A DNA stretch of 52,173 nucleotides, from the NCBI GenBank assembly GCA_040220235.1, contig JAVJTO010000020.1. One strand, 5' to 3'. This document shows, in pieces, positions 17,512 to 51,794 of the stretch. The stretch's first letter is position 1. Each line of letters begins with the position of its first letter. Below the pieces are notes generated by a model that was given only the letters and a program-made list of their open reading frames with translations, searched no databases and was not told the DNA's origin. The DNA comes from Coleofasciculus sp. B1-GNL1-01 (lineage in GTDB: Bacteria > Cyanobacteriota > Cyanobacteriia > Cyanobacteriales > Coleofasciculaceae). A program made the position numbers and the translations under genes.

Positions 17512-19827
17512 CTAATTTTCAGATTGGTTCGGCAATAGGGAAGAAGGAGAATCTGGGGGAAGGGGATGTTTCCAGACATTGCGATCGCGAGATTGTAGCT
17601 TGCTCACCTCAACCGTAGCCCCTCGCTGTTCTAATTCTCGCCCCTGAGCCGCCGACAACCCCGCATTTTGCTTAAATATTGCTCCCTCAACCTTCGCACC
17701 ACTCAGATTAGCATTGAAAAGATTTGCGCCTGTGAGATTCGCTTGTCTTAAATCTGCATTCGTCAAATTGACATGACGCAAAAACGTCTGACTCAAATCG
17801 GCTCCCCTGAGATTTAAATGACTTAAATCAGCACGACTCAAATCAGCGCGGCTCAGATTTGCCCCTTCTAAATTAGCATGACTGAGGATAGCACGACGCA
17901 ATCGCACCTCCTTTAAATTAGCTCCCCTTAACATCGCCTGATTCAATTGAGCATTGTTAAGATTAGCTTGGCTTAAATCAGCTCTGAATAGACTGGCTTC
18001 GCTTAGATTCGCCTGTTCTAAAATTGCTCCCTCTAAAGTGGCTTGATCCAACTGGCTGTGCTGTAAATCTGCACCCGTTAAATTCGCCTGACTTAGGTTC
18101 GCCTCACTCAAGTCAACCTCACTTAAATCCCCTTCCCGGAGGCTAGTTTGTCGTAAATTGGCATTTTTGAGATTGGCACCCGTGAGAATTGCCTGATTCA
18201 AATTTCCATGGCTGAGATCCGCCTGTTGGAGGTTGGTATGTCGCAGTTTCGCCCCCATCAGACTGGCGCGACGCAGATTAATGTTTTGCAAATTGGAACG
18301 ACTCAAATTGGCGTTATTTAAGTTAGCGCCATTGAGATTGGCAGAATTCAAGTCAGTAACCGTTAAATCAGCCCCCATGAGTATGGCACTACTTAAATTA
18401 GCGCCTCCCAATTTAGCTAGACTCAAATTTGCCTCACTCAGATCCGCACTGCTCAGATTCGCTTCCCGTAGATCCGCCGCACTCAAATCACTATTGCGAA
18501 TGTCGGCTCCCTTGAGATCACTCCCCCGTAAATCAGCGCCTTTCAACTGGCAAAAAATACGGTATGCCTCCAACTCAGAAACCTCAGATTCGCCCTTCTT
18601 AATTTTGACAACATCAAATTGCACGTTCTCGGTATAAATGGCAAATACAACATTAAAAATGTCCAAAAAATGAATAAACAAGCGACATTCTGTTTCCGGA
18701 TATTTTTCGTAATAGCGAATTAGATTGGCAATACAATTATCTAAATGAGTGCGAACATAATTACACAATAAAATAATTTTGAGCAGGAGAATTACAATTG
18801 TCAGAGGACTACCTTGGCTGGTGAGAGTGATAAAGAGCGGGGAGGGTTCCTGCCCATTTTCTGTGGTTAAAAATTCCAAGGTGCGCCGACAGGTTCGCAG
18901 TAATAACTCCATGGTCGTCGTTTCCTCATTGTATGACTCATAGAGGATCTCAAGTTTTTCAGTCAGGGTCTTTTTGAAAAAATCAATCGACTGGTGAGGA
19001 CTCGTTGAACTGAGTAAATAGTCGATTAATTTCTGCTTAAAGTCTCGATAAGTAAGCGTTTTGCTCTGCTGAACAAACAAATCAGCCGTATGAGAATAAC
19101 TGTGCAGAAACTTACGCGATATCAGTTGTTTGAGCAGGCGAATGATTCCATTGCCCAGTCGAGTAGGATTCGGCGGCGGTTCCTTTTTAAAGGTTGGCGA
19201 ATTACAATGCACGGTGTACATTGCTAGCTCAAATTTAAACTTCTCTTTTAACCGTTTTGCAGTTTTCTTAGCTAATTCCCGCTGCTCAACTGGATTTTGA
19301 GAATCTAAATATTGCGGTAATAATAAATAATAAGCATAGCGATGACTCCACCCTCGACGTTCGGTACGGCTTGAGGTAAAGACTTTAAGTTCTTGATAGT
19401 CCTGGCTTTCAATAAAATTAGCAATCCACGTTCTCAAACGATTCAGGATCTGAGATACAGTAGATTTAACTGAGTCCACCTTAGCCAGCGTTTGAATCAA
19501 CTCCTCTATCGAGTCTGAGCGCCGACTTGCCAACCAATTGTTAATTAAAATATAGCAAGACCGTTTCAGAGTATTTCTGAATTCTTGCTCATTCTTTTGC
19601 TCAAGCAGCTCATACATTGAGCGAGCAACGTCTGGATTTTGTGTACACTCACTGGAAAAAAATAACTGCTTAAAGTCCTGCAAAACAGTTTCAGGAGGGT
19701 CATTTTCCACTCGTTCGAGTAGGAATTGAAAAATAACCTCCTGAGCTTGCTGAATCCGTTGCTGCTTTGATTCTCCATCAGCCGAAGAATCGATTTGCTG
19801 ATTGTCTGGTATGATGCGCCCCTCCAT
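17512..19827 (-). CDS. Pentapeptide-repeat protein with about 430-aa unknown N-terminal domain
   Basis: Long run of A(D/N)Lxx repeats in the C-terminal part. Confidence 0.9.
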   Translation of the reverse strand: MEGRIIPDNQQIDSSADGESKQQRIQQAQEVIFQFLLERVENDPPETVLQDFKQLFFSSECTQNPDVARSMYELLEQKNEQEFRNTLKRSCYILINNWLASRRSDSIEELIQTLAKVDSVKSTVSQILNRLRTWIANFIESQDYQELKVFTSSRTERRGWSHRYAYYLLLPQYLDSQNPVEQRELAKKTAKRLKEKFKFELAMYTVHCNSPTFKKEPPPNPTRLGNGIIRLLKQLISRKFLHSYSHTADLFVQQSKTLTYRDFKQKLIDYLLSSTSPHQSIDFFKKTLTEKLEILYESYNEETTTMELLLRTCRRTLEFLTTENGQEPSPLFITLTSQGSPLTIVILLLKIILLCNYVRTHLDNCIANLIRYYEKYPETECRLFIHFLDIFNVVFAIYTENVQFDVVKIKKGESEVSELEAYRIFCQLKGADLRGSDLKGADIRNSDLSAADLREANLSSADLSEANLSLAKLGGANLSSAILMGADLTVTDLNSANLNGANLNNANLSRSNLQNINLRRASLMGAKLRHTNLQQADLSHGNLNQAILTGANLKNANLRQTSLREGDLSEVDLSEANLSQANLTGADLQHSQLDQATLEGAILEQANLSEASLFRADLSQANLNNAQLNQAMLRGANLKEVRLRRAILSHANLEGANLSRADLSRADLSHLNLRGADLSQTFLRHVNLTNADLRQANLTGANLFNANLSGAKVEGAIFKQNAGLSAAQGRELEQRGATVEVSKLQSRDRNVWKHPLPPDSPSSLLPNQSEN

Positions 19828-20103
19828 AAAATAGGCAAAATCTGAGTTGGCTAATCCTGGTGGTTATTTGTCTCTACTCCTCCATAGCGGCGACAGTCTC
19901 TGCCTCTAGTTTAACCTTTTCCCCAAATATCCTTTATCGGAAATATTTATTCTAACCAAAATCCGTAGCATCTTGGGGAGCAGGCGTACAGGGGAGATGG
20001 GGGAGATGGGGAAGATGGGGAAGATGGGACAGAGAATTTACAAAGGATGAATGACCAATGACCAATGACGTCCTCACCGTTAACTTTAAATTTTCCCACC
20101 TAC

Positions 20104-22239
20104 TTACCCAATAATTGCACCCTGTTGTTTGAGTTCTCGCTTCATTGGCTCAGAGAGTCCAGAATTATTTCCAAATCGAGTTCCCTTAACCTTCACATCC
20201 GTGAGATTTGCATTAAACAGGTTGGCACCAATAAGATTAGCATGATTGAGATTTGCCCCCGTCAAATTAACGTGACGTAGCAAAGCTTTACTCATATCGC
20301 TTCTACTGAGGTTACTATTGCTCAAATCTGTGCGAGTTAAGTTCGTTTTCTGAAGATTAGCATGACACAAACTGGCATAACTGAGATCCGCCCGATCCAA
20401 GTTAGCACTACTTAAATTGGCGTGGTTTAGCTGAGTCCAATTGAGTTGAGCGCATCTAAGATTAGCATCCCTGAGATCTACATCCTTAAGATTGGCTTTA
20501 CTGAGATCAGCATTGCTCAGATCAGCATAGCGCAGGTTGGCATTCACTAGATTCGCAGAATTCAAGCTAGCATTACTTAAGTCAGCACTACTCAGATCGG
20601 CTTGCTGGAGATTAGCACGACGTAGTTTAGCACTTTTTAAAGTTGCACAGCATAGATTAGCTTGTCGCAAGTCAGAACAACGTAGATTGGCTTCACTGAG
20701 ACTCGCACCGCTCAAATTAGCCTCTTGAAGCATCGCACCGCTTAACTCCGTGCGATCAAGCATCGCACCGCTTAAGTTTGTCTGACTGAGTTTGGCAAGA
20801 CTCAAGTCGGCTTTGCTCAAATCAGCCCCCGCCAAATCAGCCTCCCGTAAATCTGCTGCTCTCAGATCCATATAACGGATATCTGTTCCTCTTAAATCAG
20901 CGCTCCGCAGATCCGTTCCTTTCAATTGAGAAAAGACGCGATAGTTATCAAGATCCATAACATAAGCATCTGGCTCATCGTCATGATCACTAAGTTTAAC
21001 GATGTTATATTGAGTGTCTTCGGTACAAATAGCAAAAATAATCTTGAAAACTTCCAAGAAATTAATCAGCCACTGACAGTCTTTTTCAGTAGAATTTTCG
21101 TAATATCGGATTAATTGAGCAATACAAACATCAAGATGCGTTTGAGCATATTTACAAATTAAAATGATTTTTAGGAGAATCACGACTAAGGTTAAAGGGT
21201 TGCCACGATTCGTTAACAAAATAAATAGAGTCGAAGGTTCTCGACCATCTTCAGTTGTTAGAACCTCAATCATTCGCCGACATGTTCGTAGTAGTAAGTC
21301 ACCACTAATCGGTTTAAGATGATGATTTTCATAAAGACTATCTAATCGAGCAAATAAATACTGATCGAGTATTTCCGAATAAACAGGAGTATTAATTAAA
21401 AACAACAAATACTTTTTTAAATCCTGTTTAAAGTCTTGGTAGCTTTGATTTTCAACGTATTGGTTTAAATGATCAGCATAACTTCGGCAATTAACCAAGA
21501 GTTGCCGAGAGCTTATTTTTTTAATCAGTTGGATGACGTGAGGACCTAGACGAGTTGGATTACTAATTTTTTTATCGGAGTTAAAATTAGGAGAATCATA
21601 TCGAGCCGTATACATGGCTAGATCAAACTTAAATTTTTTCCTCAGCCGTCTAGACAAATTTTTGGCAGTTTCTCGCTGTTCAATTGGATTGCGAGAGTCC
21701 AGATATTGAGGAACTAATAAATAAGATGTATACCGATGACTCCAGTGCTGTTGTTCGGCTTCAGATTCAGCCGTATAGGGAGCCGAAAATAATTTCAGTT
21801 CTTGATAATCGTGGCTATCAACAAAATTAGCAACATACCCTTTTAGCCGACTCATGGAAGGGGATAGAGTTGTCGGCTTAAGCGGAGGCTCACCAACTAA
21901 GTGAATCAGGTTTTGAATAAAATCATAACGGCGTTTTGAAGACCAGTTATTGATTAAAATATAACAAGATCGTTTTAAAGTATTCCTGAATTCTTGGTCA
22001 TTTTTACTGGCAACAATTGTATCAAGTGCCGTTTTTACATGAGATTCACTCGGCTCTTTACCAAATACAAATAATTGGCGAAACTCTTGTAATACAGTTT
22101 CTGGAGGATTGTGATGAACAATTTTGATCAAAAATTGATAAATAACCTCCTGAGCCTGCTGAATATTGAAGTCAGACCCAGAAATGTCCTCACCTGATAC
22201 ATTCAATTGTTCGCCTTCTGGCAAGATGCGCCCCGTCAT
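20104..22239 (-). CDS. Pentapeptide-repeat protein, paralog of 17512..19827
   Basis: Shared blocks FRNTLKRSCYILINNW, WSHRY, NPTRLG and LLLRTCRR. Start MTGRILP chosen by analogy to MEGRIIP. Confidence 0.9.
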   Translation of the reverse strand: MTGRILPEGEQLNVSGEDISGSDFNIQQAQEVIYQFLIKIVHHNPPETVLQEFRQLFVFGKEPSESHVKTALDTIVASKNDQEFRNTLKRSCYILINNWSSKRRYDFIQNLIHLVGEPPLKPTTLSPSMSRLKGYVANFVDSHDYQELKLFSAPYTAESEAEQQHWSHRYTSYLLVPQYLDSRNPIEQRETAKNLSRRLRKKFKFDLAMYTARYDSPNFNSDKKISNPTRLGPHVIQLIKKISSRQLLVNCRSYADHLNQYVENQSYQDFKQDLKKYLLFLINTPVYSEILDQYLFARLDSLYENHHLKPISGDLLLRTCRRMIEVLTTEDGREPSTLFILLTNRGNPLTLVVILLKIILICKYAQTHLDVCIAQLIRYYENSTEKDCQWLINFLEVFKIIFAICTEDTQYNIVKLSDHDDEPDAYVMDLDNYRVFSQLKGTDLRSADLRGTDIRYMDLRAADLREADLAGADLSKADLSLAKLSQTNLSGAMLDRTELSGAMLQEANLSGASLSEANLRCSDLRQANLCCATLKSAKLRRANLQQADLSSADLSNASLNSANLVNANLRYADLSNADLSKANLKDVDLRDANLRCAQLNWTQLNHANLSSANLDRADLSYASLCHANLQKTNLTRTDLSNSNLSRSDMSKALLRHVNLTGANLNHANLIGANLFNANLTDVKVKGTRFGNNSGLSEPMKRELKQQGAIIG

Positions 22240-22749
22240 GATCCAAAAAAATGTTGACAATAATTATAGGATTAAAATTTTGTCATCGTTATAGTTTAGT
22301 AGCATACGGAATAGACAATACAGCTCGGATCAGCTCTAATTCTTCTCCCTCTCCTCCTCTAGTGCAAGAAGATAGAAATAACTGAACAGCTACTAGCTCC
22401 CCCAGCGTCTTAGAACTCTCTTCTTAGCCGAGCAGTATAGGGGCGTGCAAGGGAGATTTTCGCGGGTCAGTACTGACCACCCCACTGCACTAGCCAAATT
22501 TTGCCGACGGGAGAAGGAGCAACTGCGATCGCATAAGTAAGTTAGCTAACCCTTGCTAAGACAAGTCTATTCTTCATCATACCTTAGTCTAGCTTTCTGG
22601 AACGTCGCCCAAAAGCGGCTATCCCTCCCACCGTCTTGGCTGGGGTAGTAAGGATAGCCATTGTGTACTGTCTTCACCGTTGATGGTTCAGACCAGATTC
22701 TTCGCTTCGATATCATACGACAGGTTAGAACGCAACTTGGTATCAAATC

Positions 22750-39960: not shown

Positions 39961-39977
39961 GAGGGGTCTGACCCCTC
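39961..39977. promoter_or_regulatory. Candidate HetR-binding palindrome
   Basis: GAGGGGTCTGACCCCTC, one base from the Anabaena hetP site GAGGGGTCTAACCCCTC as I recall it. Confidence 0.5.
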
Positions 39978-47820: not shown

Positions 47821-48264
47821 GTGAAAGGCTTTGAGCAGTTGAGAGAGCTTCAAACATTTAGCAAGCAATTTCCTTCCGACCTGAATGCGTTAGACCAGGT
47901 TTTATCCTGGTTTGGGGAGCTTCACCCCTCCTCAATCGAAACAAAAGTCTGGTTACAGTGCAAACTAGCGCTTGCGGAAGGATACACGAACGCGGTGAAA
48001 TATGCCCACAAAGACTTACCGCCCAGCGTTTCCATTGAGGTTGAGGTGATTTTGGCGCAATCGCCCCAACGCCTAGAGATACGGGTTTGGGACTCTGGAG
48101 CGCCTTTTGATTTTGAACGGCGACTCCGCACTCCGTCGTCCTTGCCTAATGACCAGGCTGAAGGAGGGCGAGGATTGGCTATCATGCAAAAAATTGCCGA
48201 TAAGCTCAGTTATACACGCATGGATGATAACCGCAACTGTTTGACGATTGTTAAATTTTATTAA
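47821..48264 (+). CDS. RsbW-like anti-sigma factor / Ser kinase
   Basis: EGYTNAVKYA (N box), WDSG and GGRGL. Confidence 0.9.
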   Translation: MKGFEQLRELQTFSKQFPSDLNALDQVLSWFGELHPSSIETKVWLQCKLALAEGYTNAVKYAHKDLPPSVSIEVEVILAQSPQRLEIRVWDSGAPFDFERRLRTPSSLPNDQAEGGRGLAIMQKIADKLSYTRMDDNRNCLTIVKFY

Positions 48265-48396: not shown

Positions 48397-48419
48397 AACC
48401 CAGCTTGAGAAGCTGGGTT
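48397..48419 (-). terminator. Rho-independent terminator for a minus-strand transcript
   Basis: AACCCAGCTT-N3-AAGCTGGGTT stem running into a short T-tract on the minus strand. Confidence 0.6.
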
Positions 48420-48533
48420 ACTGTTTAGGCTTTACCTTCAATTGCTCTATCTGCTCCGAATAACTGAATCAAACTGGGTTAAATCTAGCTTGATGCTCAC
48501 TAGAATTCAGGGGCTTACCTGGTGAATCACCAT

Positions 48534-48677
48534 TTAGCGACCGCTGCCGCGATTGTCATCGTTGCCCTTAGCATCAAACGTAAGACGCTTGGCTGATTGA
48601 TTGGATAAAATGACTACGCTTTCACGTTTTCCCCTAAAGTAGGATGCTAGTGAAAACTTGCTTCTGTTGTTGCACAT
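48534..48677 (-). CDS. 47-aa peptide ending in RGSGR (PatS-like), absent from the ORF track
   Basis: Manual translation MCNNRSKFSLASYFRGKRESVVILSNQSAKRLTFDAKGNDDNRGSGR-stop; GGAG 11 nt before ATG; terminator downstream. Confidence 0.65.
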   Translation of the reverse strand: MCNNRSKFSLASYFRGKRESVVILSNQSAKRLTFDAKGNDDNRGSGR

Positions 48678-48781
48678 CGCTTGTAGATCTCCGTGTCCAA
48701 GTTGCTACAGCCTTTTTTCCAATCGACAGCGTGCAAATCAGGACAAACCCTAAAATTGGGAGTAGGATGGGCGGGGGCTTG

Positions 48782-48843
48782 GGGAGATGAGGGAGATGAG
48801 GGAGATGAGGGAGATGAGGGAGATGAGGGAGATGAGGGAGATG
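48782..48843. repeat. 9-bp tandem repeat (GGGAGATGA, about 7 copies)
   Basis: Read directly; a similar run lies at about 42675-42717. Confidence 0.85.
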
Positions 48844-48930
48844 GGGGAGCTGGGGAAGCTGGGGCAGAAAAAATTCGATTTAGAAGTTATAGCAGCTATA
48901 GCAGCTACCTTGGCAGGGAAAGGACATTCT

Positions 48931-48995: not shown

Positions 48996-49139
48996 GCGCT
49001 GTATCAGAGCAGTATTGGTATGCCAATGTCAGGAATCCATTCAGGAGGATGTCAAAATAGAACTACTGCACACTGAACCCAGTTGGGTACAGTGTTTTTC
49101 GTCCCGTCCCCCTGTCGTCACCTATTGGAAAGAGCGAGT

Positions 49140-51794
49140 GTGAACGTTTCGACCCCGAAGATAGACCTTGACCCCAAAAATCTGTTTCCGTTTCCTCTGG
49201 ATCAATTTCAGCTCCAAGCGATCGCGGCGCTGAATGCGAATCGCTCGGTTGTTGTCTGCGCCCCCACAGGTTCTGGGAAAACGTTGATTGGGGAGTATGC
49301 TATTTACCGCGCTTTGTCAAGAGGAGGGCGAGTTTTTTATACCACTCCCTTAAAAGCCCTCTCCAACCAGAAGCTGCGAGATTTTCGTGCTACGTTTGGT
49401 GCGGAAAATGTGGGTCTGGTTACGGGCGATGTTTCCATTAATCGGGACGCGCCAATCTTGGTGATGACCACGGAAATCTTCCGCAATATGCTGTACGGCA
49501 CACGCATTGGGGAAATTGGTACGTCCCTAGAAGGGGTGGAAGCGGTGGTCTTGGATGAGTGCCATTATATGAATGACCGACAACGGGGTACGGTTTGGGA
49601 AGAGTCGATTATTTATTGTCCTCCAGAAATTCAGCTTGTTGCCCTATCCGCTACGGTGGCGAATTCCGATCAACTAACGGACTGGTTGAACTTAGTTCAT
49701 GGCGCAACCGAGCGCATTTATTCCGACTTTCGACCGGTTCCCTTACAATTCAGCTTTGCCAACCCGAAGGGCATTTTTCCCCTGCTAGACTCTAGCCAAA
49801 CGAAGTTAAATCTTCGTCTCAAACCAAAACGCAAAAAAGGGAGAGGACGGGGGGGACGCCCAGAAAGCCCCAGTAATGCCTTTGTGCTGGCGCAACTCCA
49901 GCAACGGGATATGTTACCTGCGATTTATTTTATTTTCTCTCGTCGCGGTTGCGATCGCTCGGTGGAGGAGTTGGGAGAGTTGTCTCTGGTGAATGCCAAA
50001 GAAGCGGCTGAATTGAAACAGCGCATTGACGAATTTTTACGTCGGAATCCAGAAGCGGGTCGGGCGGGACAAGTAGCCCCCTTGTATCGCGGCATTGCTG
50101 CCCATCATGCGGGGATTTTACCGGCTTGGAAGGGGTTTGTAGAAGAACTGTTTCAATTAGGGTTGGTTAAGGTGGTGTTTGCCACTGAAACTCTAGCAGC
50201 GGGAATTAATATGCCCGCTCGCACGACAGTGATTTCTACCCTCTCCAAACGAACCGATCGCGGACACCGACTGCTGACAGCATCAGAATTTCTGCAAATG
50301 GCAGGTCGAGCCGGACGCCGGGGGATGGATGCCACGGGTTATGTGGTCACATTACAGACGCCGTTTGAAGGAGCAAAGGAAGCGGCGTATCTCGCCACCA
50401 GTCAGGCTGATCCCTTAGTCAGCCAGTTTACGCCCAACTACGGGATGGTGCTGAACTTACTCCAAACCCACACCCTTCCAGAAGCCAAGGAGTTGGTGGA
50501 ACGCAGTTTTGCACAATACCTGGCGACACTGTACCTCCAACCCCAGCAACAAGCGATTACGGAGTTAACCACAGAACTGGCAAAATTAGATATTCAACTA
50601 GCACCCGTTGACTTAAACGCCCTGGGGCGATACGAAAAACTCAAGGAACGGCTCAAAGAAGAACGGCGATTACTCAAAACCCTACAACGGCAAGCTCAAG
50701 CCGCACAAGTGGCGGAAATTGCCCAAATTATCCCTGAAGCGCCCTTGGGTACGCTACTTTCGCTCAAGGGCAAGTATATTCCAGTTCCGGAACCGATTCC
50801 GGCGATATTAGTCGCGAAGGAAAAAGGGCGGGGACAATCCCCTTATTTAGTCTGCTTAAGTGCCGATAATCGCTGGTATATAGCCACAACCGCCGATTTG
50901 GTTGGGGTGCATGGGTGGTTAGAAATGATTGATTTAAGTGTGCTGAACCCACCCGCTGAACTCACACTCAAGCCCGGTCAAACGAGACGGGGGACACCAG
51001 ACACCGAAGCGATCGCGGCTCAAATTCCCACTGATATAGAACCCATGGTCGCACCTGAAGTTGAGGCGCAGCAGCATCGAATGGATGCGGTAAAAGCCCA
51101 ACTCGAAGATCATCTGGTGCGACAATGGGGGAATCCGTCTCAACTGATTAAGCGTCATAAACGCCGTTTAGCTCTACAAGAGGAAATCAATGAGCGTCAA
51201 ACCCTTTACCGAGAAAATCAAGCTCAGCACTGGCAAGAATTTCTCAACCTGATCGAAATTTTAAGGACATTTGGTTGTCTGGAAGATGTTAAGCCGACAT
51301 CATTAGGGCAAGCAGCCGCAGCGATTCGCGGAGATAACGAACTGTGGTTGGGGTTAGCGTTGATGTCTAGTGCGTTTGATCAGTTAGATCCGCACCACTT
51401 AGCCGCCTGCGCCTGCGCTTTGGTGACGGAAACGCCACGTCCGGATAGCTGGACGAATTATCCCCCTTCAGAACCCGTACTGGAAGCATTAGATAGTTTA
51501 AAACAAACTCGCCGTCAGTTGTTTCAAGTCCAACGTCGTTATCAGGTGGCTCTGCCGATTTGGTTAGAACGGGATTTAATTGGGTTAGTTGAGCAATGGG
51601 CATTGGGTGTGGAATGGACACAGCTTTGTGAGGATACCAGTTTAGATGAAGGGGATATTGTCAGATTGTTGCGCCGCACGGTCGATTTTCTATCTCAAAT
51701 TCCTCATGTACCGTTCCTATCGGATGTCTTAAAACGGAATGCTATTCGAGCCATTCAGTTATTGGATCGCTTCCCGGTTAATGAATTGGGTTAG
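49140..51794 (+). CDS. Ski2/HelY-like superfamily II RNA helicase
   Basis: PTGSGKT, DECH, SAT, QMAGRAGRRG, and C-terminal DEGDIVR (DSHCT-like). Confidence 0.92.
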   Translation: MNVSTPKIDLDPKNLFPFPLDQFQLQAIAALNANRSVVVCAPTGSGKTLIGEYAIYRALSRGGRVFYTTPLKALSNQKLRDFRATFGAENVGLVTGDVSINRDAPILVMTTEIFRNMLYGTRIGEIGTSLEGVEAVVLDECHYMNDRQRGTVWEESIIYCPPEIQLVALSATVANSDQLTDWLNLVHGATERIYSDFRPVPLQFSFANPKGIFPLLDSSQTKLNLRLKPKRKKGRGRGGRPESPSNAFVLAQLQQRDMLPAIYFIFSRRGCDRSVEELGELSLVNAKEAAELKQRIDEFLRRNPEAGRAGQVAPLYRGIAAHHAGILPAWKGFVEELFQLGLVKVVFATETLAAGINMPARTTVISTLSKRTDRGHRLLTASEFLQMAGRAGRRGMDATGYVVTLQTPFEGAKEAAYLATSQADPLVSQFTPNYGMVLNLLQTHTLPEAKELVERSFAQYLATLYLQPQQQAITELTTELAKLDIQLAPVDLNALGRYEKLKERLKEERRLLKTLQRQAQAAQVAEIAQIIPEAPLGTLLSLKGKYIPVPEPIPAILVAKEKGRGQSPYLVCLSADNRWYIATTADLVGVHGWLEMIDLSVLNPPAELTLKPGQTRRGTPDTEAIAAQIPTDIEPMVAPEVEAQQHRMDAVKAQLEDHLVRQWGNPSQLIKRHKRRLALQEEINERQTLYRENQAQHWQEFLNLIEILRTFGCLEDVKPTSLGQAAAAIRGDNELWLGLALMSSAFDQLDPHHLAACACALVTETPRPDSWTNYPPSEPVLEALDSLKQTRRQLFQVQRRYQVALPIWLERDLIGLVEQWALGVEWTQLCEDTSLDEGDIVRLLRRTVDFLSQIPHVPFLSDVLKRNAIRAIQLLDRFPVNELG

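Follow-up and report, generated by a model that had tools for sequence, protein, structure and literature searches.

Can a filamentous cyanobacterium that makes no heterocysts carry, besides patX, a second gene for an RGSGR peptide of the kind by which PatS inhibits HetR, and where would such a gene come from? The question is raised by a 47-amino-acid (aa) open reading frame (ORF) on the minus strand (48677-48534) of a 52,173-nucleotide (nt) stretch of the Coleofasciculus sp. B1-GNL1-01 genome (assembly GCA_040220235.1, contig JAVJTO010000020.1), which is the window analysed here. The ORF ends in GNDDNRGSGR followed by TAA. A previous interpretation made from the letters alone, the sequence-only reading, had taken it for an unannotated gene of a distinct PatS-like morphogen. 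Sequence and conservation agree with it on the ORF and its ending, and indicate that these 47 codons are a real, conserved gene in mat-forming filamentous cyanobacteria without heterocysts. The gene is probably a duplicate of patX whose product lost its export signal and converged on the design of PatS.

The genome contains 54,504 ATG-initiated ORFs of 20-120 aa, and no other among them ends in RG(S/T)GR. When the 30 permutations of RGSGR were considered, 11 ATG ORFs of about 20-120 aa ended in one of them, about 0.4 per permutation. A terminal RGSGR within a single genome is thus not beyond chance, and the case for the gene rests on its conservation. The ORF is preceded by GGAG, resembling a ribosome-binding site, 11 nt before the ATG (48692-48689, minus strand), as had been pointed out, and GGAG or a close variant stands before the ATG of the orthologs. 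A shorter or frameshifted product from an internal out-of-frame GTG was ruled out, as the orthologs keep the in-frame ATG-TGC start. The peptide has no family in Pfam, NCBIfam or the protein atlas. Its exact sequence is indeed unannotated; however, orthologs have been called as hypothetical proteins, for instance Mic7113_2281 of Allocoleopsis franciscana PCC 7113, a genome that, like that of PCC 7420, was presumably public in 2018.

The conservation check suggested with the sequence-only reading gave a clear answer, since a DNA similarity search found the ORF kept in seven of eight relatives of the same genus. The pattern D-x-RG(S/T)GR-stop was matched in 35 of 52 Coleofasciculaceae genomes, and its reversed control in 2. 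Of the 35 matches, 32 were full orthologs, one was a tiny plasmid-like ORF and two were non-stop matches. A profile built on 23 members recovered eight further orthologs, giving 40 in the 52 genomes and a presence in 21 of 24 genera. This count includes the unpublished genome G044 (39 of 51 without it), which was kept out of the 23-member profile, of the leader-profile sets and of those for the ratio of nonsynonymous to synonymous rates (dN/dS). In a profile scan of 401 genomes of the class, strong matches were confined to Coleofasciculaceae. Two weak matches outside the family (E 0.003 and 0.007) were rejected as orthologs by promoter and start, and weak second matches within the genus lay antisense to a large gene. 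The order-wide pattern scan, which covered 366 genomes beyond the family, had matches in 32 of them, and none of the 15 matches examined was an ortholog: nine were signal-peptide PatX proteins ending at the motif, three were short peptides of the classical PatS type and three were chance matches. Protein collections yielded 79 homolog clusters, all with NRGSGR, the named ones being called hypothetical; the closest named records (34-44 of 47 residues matching) belong to Coleofasciculus sp. Four of the 33 collection-wide matches were non-cyanobacterial chance matches, and the 36 representatives include at least one long repetitive false positive (P0106), while P0108, P0109 and P0113 are also long proteins. 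The protein P0110, of 181 aa, has a signal peptide and four NRGSGR units.

The orthologs are 43-52 aa long, with one of 19 aa that shares the promoter and the genomic context beside miaB. All length variants are in frame, all three stop codons are in use and the start MC is found in 36 of 40. In 39 of 40 the peptide ends with the motif, the remaining one having two extra residues, and a conserved acidic run, D(E/D)DD, comes just before the motif. The residue preceding RGSGR is N in 33, T in 4, G in 3 and E in none; the replacement of E by N, correctly noticed before, is neutral by published binding data, which allow any residue at this place (PMC4649674). According to the same source, XRGSGR is the likely mature form, and the predicted mature hexapeptide of this gene would be NRGSGR (48554-48537, minus strand). 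Among eight sequences of the genus the codons for DDNRGSGR (48537-48560) show no amino-acid change, with proportions of nonsynonymous and synonymous differences (pN and pS) of 0.0 and 0.21, whereas the middle of the ORF has a dN/dS of 0.75. These values indicate that selection acts on the motif only and that the middle drifts near-neutrally. The absence of an obvious signal peptide was also confirmed: the best 11-residue hydropathy within the first 25 aa is 0.17, and none of the 32 members tested has an N-terminal hydrophobic segment (values up to 1.24), as judged from 11-residue hydropathy windows only. In some members the middle is moderately hydrophobic, which could be a vestige of a signal peptide.

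Upstream of the ORF, 17 nt separate a TCCTGA (48743-48738) from a GGAAAA (48720-48715). This arrangement had been recognized before, with coordinates that span the hexamer only, and N16-TGGA is an equally good reading of it, so that the -10 element (48717-48721) is either TGGA with a spacer of 16 or GGAA with a spacer of 17. All 40 orthologs have TCC(T/G)GA, 16 or 17 nt and nGnA, at 53-63 nt upstream of the ATG. Compared with the sigma-HetZ promoter consensus, in which the G at -32 is replaceable, the N17-GGAA reading contains tolerated bases only, and the N16-TGGA reading has at -11 a G that is not among the bases listed as tolerated (PMC13342950). The promoter thus fits the DIF1 or sigma-HetZ type, as judged from its conserved elements, and transcription is predicted to start near 48708.

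Immediately upstream of hetR the host genome has a canonical patX, encoding 88 aa with a hydrophobic N-terminus and the motif HRGSGR (NCBIfam NF047413, 40.1 bits), and the 47-aa ORF is therefore the second RGSGR gene of the genome. It is not adjacent to hetR: contig C51 carries hetR and patX, and C20 carries the 47-aa gene. N-terminal hydropathy is 0.17 for the ORF versus 2.35 for the host PatX. The ORF does not match NF047413 (cut-off 30), for which an 11-bit stretch was the only trace, in one of five members tested. The two genes are linked by their 5' leaders. A profile of 39 ortholog leaders, with the -35 and -10 boxes excluded, had the patX leader as its best non-self match in the genome (E 0.048), and the reciprocal patX-leader profile found 11 of the 39 ortholog leaders at E of 0.012 or less and none of six promoters of a neighbouring gene island discussed below. 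The leader motif of this copy (48690-48707, minus strand) has three mismatches and is scored poorly by the patX-leader profile; of its 27 matches in the genome, only this site and that of patX lie behind a promoter of the sigma-HetZ type. Homology of the leaders, and with it paralogy of the genes, is thus supported at the level of the family, while it is not provable from this copy alone. What had been called a distinct PatS-like morphogen is supported as a conserved, signal-less RGSGR precursor distinct from patX and with a DIF1-type promoter, but it looks like a derived patX paralog.

A comparable change is seen next to hetR itself. In the hetR region of the 39 carriers checked, 19 have a motif-bearing signal-peptide patX, 19 have a signal-less peptide of 26-30 aa ending in PHRGSGR and one, with 800 bases, has neither. 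In 14 scored PHRGSGR loci a motif-less signal-peptide copy lies in tandem (for example L153:352-444, L137, L139, L141, L144, L160 and L161), which indicates that signal loss from the patX cassette occurred separately at hetR. These peptides resemble the 47-aa family in being signal-less duplicates of the patX cassette with the motif at the stop and the same type of promoter and leader. They differ in length, in the H before the motif and in the tandem arrangement, and none is present at hetR in this genome; we found no published description of them. In 38 of the 39 carriers there are two or more RG(S/T)GR genes, including one of PatS-like design, and this suggests that cytoplasmic inhibitors have arisen from patX repeatedly. 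In ten carriers the ortholog is followed, 0.4-4 kb downstream and on the same strand, by a PatX-like gene with a signal peptide, in which the motif is mostly degenerate (GCGRR). A further PatX-like family, likewise with a signal peptide and with C...(P/R)GCGRR, was seen at the miaB locus, downstream of the ortholog, in L244, L236, L243, L241, L249, L232, L237, L233 and L193, and both g13 genomes checked (L215 and L216) carry a PGSGRR version at the miaB locus without the ortholog. In genus g6, PatX precursors have three to five repeated (H/Y)RGSGR units (L140, L143, L268 and L275).

By their defining tests the members of the 47-aa family belong to neither PatS nor PatX. With PatS of Anabaena/Nostoc PCC 7120 (17 aa, ending in ERGSGR) they have in common the C-terminal motif after D-x, the lack of a signal, a DIF1/sigma-HetZ-type promoter and a dispensable N-terminal part, and by this analogy the family may work like PatS. 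However, the orthologs are longer, have N, T or G instead of E, are similar to PatS in the motif only and occur in a host without heterocysts; the extended ERGSGR motif of PatS is reported for heterocystous strains (PMC5812504). The promoter distance is also different, about 580 nt in patS (PMC7377430) versus 53-63 nt. With PatX they share RGSGR, the TCCTGA promoter at an equal distance from the ATG, a leader and first codons that look related at the level of the family and the occurrence in non-heterocystous filaments, but they lack the hydrophobic N-terminus and the NF047413 match, lie away from hetR (upstream of which patX is found in Leptolyngbya BL0902 and in this family) and coexist with a true patX. 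Table S3 of PMC12756182 gives one PatX each for PCC 7420 (88 aa) and PCC 7113 (74 aa), and neither is the peptide of the 47-aa family. HetN of Anabaena PCC 7120, another inhibitor of HetR beside PatS and PatX, also has RGSGR; it is a short-chain dehydrogenase-like, unrelated protein with an internal motif. The terminal position of the motif, which had been taken as PatS-like, is present but unspecific, since in two other families PatX proteins with a signal peptide stop exactly at D(H/N)RGSGR, beside hetR in genus g56 (L099-L102) and beside clpP in genus g79 (L108-L112). Tiny additional ORFs of about 9-31 aa with D-(N/E)-RG(S/T)GR were observed at L117 (G019:C9), L053 (G015:C114), L118 (G014:C468) and L202 (G015:C15), two of them in plasmid-like contexts beside a common ORF of unknown function; it is possible that they are mobile mimics. 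In another family, L211 (G668:C2) has GGDEDDRGSGR plus nine residues directly after a hetR-like gene, and no DIF1-type promoter was seen there.

Components for a peptide-controlled HetR circuit are present in the host. The genome has one hetR (encoding 299 aa), a hetZ above the cut-off and a DUF5357 gene, which we take to be the septal-junction gene fraD. Further hetZ-like genes score under the NF037963 cut-off (G000:C168:51281-52324, 508 bits; C63:109573-110391, 88 bits). The host HetR keeps R223, E253, E254, D256, D270 and D278, the residues contacted by the peptide (PMC4649674). Coleofasciculus chthonoplastes is typed F, filamentous and not heterocystous, in Table S3 of PMC12756182. We propose that the patX cassette, consisting of promoter, leader and first codons, was duplicated and that the copy lost its Sec signal peptide together with the residues behind the motif. 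HetR would activate hetZ, and sigma-HetZ would transcribe the gene from its conserved DIF1-type promoter, if regulation is as in Anabaena. The product has no N-terminal hydrophobic segment and would stay in the cytoplasm, where the disposable N-terminal portion of about 40 residues may be trimmed, probably near the acidic run, to NRGSGR with a free C-terminus. A PatS precursor is likewise trimmed to a short peptide (PMC4133259). NRGSGR would then bind the cleft of the HetR hood and detach HetR from DNA, in the cell that makes the peptide and perhaps also in adjacent cells reached through septal junctions. The outcome would be two routes of negative feedback on HetR, one exported (PatX) and one cytoplasmic and PatS-like. 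By analogy with PatS, we infer that the product could inhibit HetR, be processed, diffuse and act in patterning. Taken as a whole, the explanation as a patX-cassette duplicate that gives a cytoplasmic NRGSGR precursor and a second feedback route on HetR is the best we have, and we hold it to be reasonably probable.

Several observations weigh against this explanation and must be taken into account. The patX-leader profile ranks the copy of this genome 72 of 1600, with an E of about 100, and misses or weakly scores 28 of the 39 orthologs. The family-wide dN/dS values, 0.03 for the motif versus 0.97 for the middle across 38 sequences (without G044 and the 19-aa member), are partly circular for the motif, as most members were found through it. 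No copy was detected in 12 of the 52 genomes of the family. Eight of these, near-complete (95-100%) and from two genera, look truly lacking, and the miaB-side position was inspected in three of the eight; the other four are assembly cases. In G001 the sequence diverges exactly at the -35 element and the rsb block was also not found (40 of 346 candidates scored), the contig of G047 stops where the promoter would begin, G052 is also without the miaB marker and G055 is 79% complete. Regarding transcription, 4 of 18 listed RNA runs were examined, in contigs that show neither strand nor level. Three of them (X4, X7 and X9) have flat, DNA-like cover on multi-kb contigs and are uninformative. The fourth, a metatranscriptome, weakly suggests expression: it has a contig over 48371-48749 with a depth of 97 versus 3-9 for the other listed pieces of the run, which was itself found using this stretch, and the contig continues 223 letters past the promoter. 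Moreover, N-terminal extension of the peptide beyond six residues lowers its affinity for HetR (PMC4649674), so that a cytoplasmic protease would be required. PatX of Nostoc without its signal sequence neither inhibited differentiation nor bound HetR in two-hybrid assays (PMC12756182), and PatX of Leptolyngbya BL0902 acts largely independently of HetR (PMC11298460).

The Leptolyngbya result leads to another explanation, in which the peptide is made and its motif is functional but its main target is a receptor other than HetR. It would agree with the phenotype of a patX-hetR double deletion, which resembled the patX and not the hetR deletion (PMC11298460), and with the acidic run D(E/D)DD, which the contacts between HetR and PatS6 leave unexplained (PMC4649674). 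However, RGSGR never varies, HetR has an intact pocket, a promoter of the HetR-HetZ type is present in 40 of 40 orthologs and HetR is named as the sole known target of such peptides (PMC7377430), so we regard this explanation as unlikely, though it deserves attention. A distinctly less probable one is that the product remains unprocessed, or is trimmed slowly, and acts as a brake inside the cell that ends a pulse of HetR and sigma-HetZ, with no diffusing morphogen and no spatial pattern. The missing export signal (hydropathy 0.17 versus 2.35 in PatX), precursors of 43-52 aa, far longer than PatS, and a host that makes no heterocysts would be expected for such a brake, but the 19-aa member and the near-neutral middle suggest that the C-terminal piece alone matters, as in PatS, and the septal-junction gene (DUF5357) is present.

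Orthology with the classical patS of Nostocales, which would make PatS older than heterocysts, is suggested by the signal-less D-x-RGSGR-stop design of both and by classical-type DERGSGR ORFs in three genomes of another family. Yet there is no similarity past the motif, the family profile has no match in 18 genomes of the DERGSGR-bearing family, the leader resembles that of patX and the DIF1 promoter of patS is about 580 nt upstream (PMC7377430) instead of 55-60 nt, which makes this origin very improbable. We give hardly any credence to a decaying patX duplicate or chance ORF without function. Its near-neutral middle, the chance expectation of about 0.4 terminal RGSGR per genome and the lack of the gene in some genera would fit. 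However, 40 genomes from 21 of 24 genera retain its frame, start, promoter and motif, the motif codons differ by many synonymous changes, NRGSGR is kept in all 79 homolog clusters, and this conservation largely refutes such a reading.

If the gene is a patX duplicate feeding back on HetR, it would be a second, non-exported source of a peptide of the HetR-inhibitor type in filaments without heterocysts, a design otherwise described mainly in heterocyst formers. The functions of HetR and PatX in such filaments "remain a mystery" (PMC11298460). It is conceivable, although we put it forward tentatively, that Coleofasciculaceae independently evolved a PatS-equivalent morphogen twice, from patX copies without the signal peptide, and that a two-inhibitor HetR/sigma-HetZ circuit, with exported PatX and a cytoplasmic DNRGSGR peptide, spaces an unrecognised cell state along the filament, the neighbouring island with its HetR box and five sigma-HetZ promoters being among its outputs. 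In that case PatS itself might have emerged from PatX in a similar way. The peptide, its promoter and the candidate regulon are handles for finding a patterned process in mat-building cyanobacteria. No published description of the 47-aa family was found, in a comparison that did not extend to Elhai & Khudyakov 2018, whose supplements may list the gene.

Downstream of the ORF, the proposed terminator at 48397-48419 is a perfect hairpin with a 10-bp stem; the 51-nt stretch folds at -16.2 kcal/mol (z -3.0), and all ten pairs are kept in five of five aligned same-genus loci, with no covariation. As a terminator it is less certain, because the consensus terminator scan made no call and only four U follow on the minus strand. 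The claim that it has no other gene to serve did not hold, since the convergent rsbW-like gene, with a HATPase_c_2 domain (47821-48264, plus strand; PF13581, E 5e-23), ends 133 nt away; the hairpin may serve this gene, the 47-aa gene or both. Just 5' of the promoter, at about 48780-48860, there are short tandem repeats of the GGGAGATGA type, dispersed in many copies in genomes of the genus. On the other side lies a divergent gene for a DEAD/DSHCT helicase, presumably helY (49083-51794, plus strand; PF08148, PF00270).

The sequence-only reading had also suggested cell-patterned expression of the neighbouring island. As an argument from position this is not supported: across the 40 orthologs the neighbour is miaB in 23 and helY in 12, with neither assigned in 5, indicating that adjacency to the island is lineage-specific and not ancestral. 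The island (about 22750-43422, minus strand) consists of Roadblock/LC7, small GTPase, protoglobin and unassigned 156-184-aa repeat genes. On its coding strand there are five strict TCCGGA-N16-nG(T/A)A sites (43628, 41349, 39651, 28427 and 24363) versus 0.12 expected, which are not independent of each other because the island cassettes are duplicated. A HetR-box-like palindrome, GGG-N5-CCC, is also found at about 39961-39977. In four of five genomes tested, the island is within about 8 kb of the ortholog of the 47-aa gene, and the fifth (G019) has its nearest Roadblock genes at a distance of about 31 kb. It is plausible, in view of the promoter-like sites and the palindrome, that gene and island belong to a shared HetR/sigma-HetZ regulon, and cell-patterned expression would be a further conjecture.

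Adjoining the island, at 17512-22260 of the window (minus strand), are genes for two proteins of 771 and 718 aa that share an unassigned domain at the N-terminus and have pentapeptide repeats at the C-terminus, PF00805 being confirmed for the first. HetL, an immunity factor of HetR, is likewise a pentapeptide-repeat protein. Elsewhere in the genome, at G000:C147:25376-26188 (L125), a nifH-like gene adjoins a nifU-like gene; it looks like the cluster III type that we assume to be the one reported for the genus.
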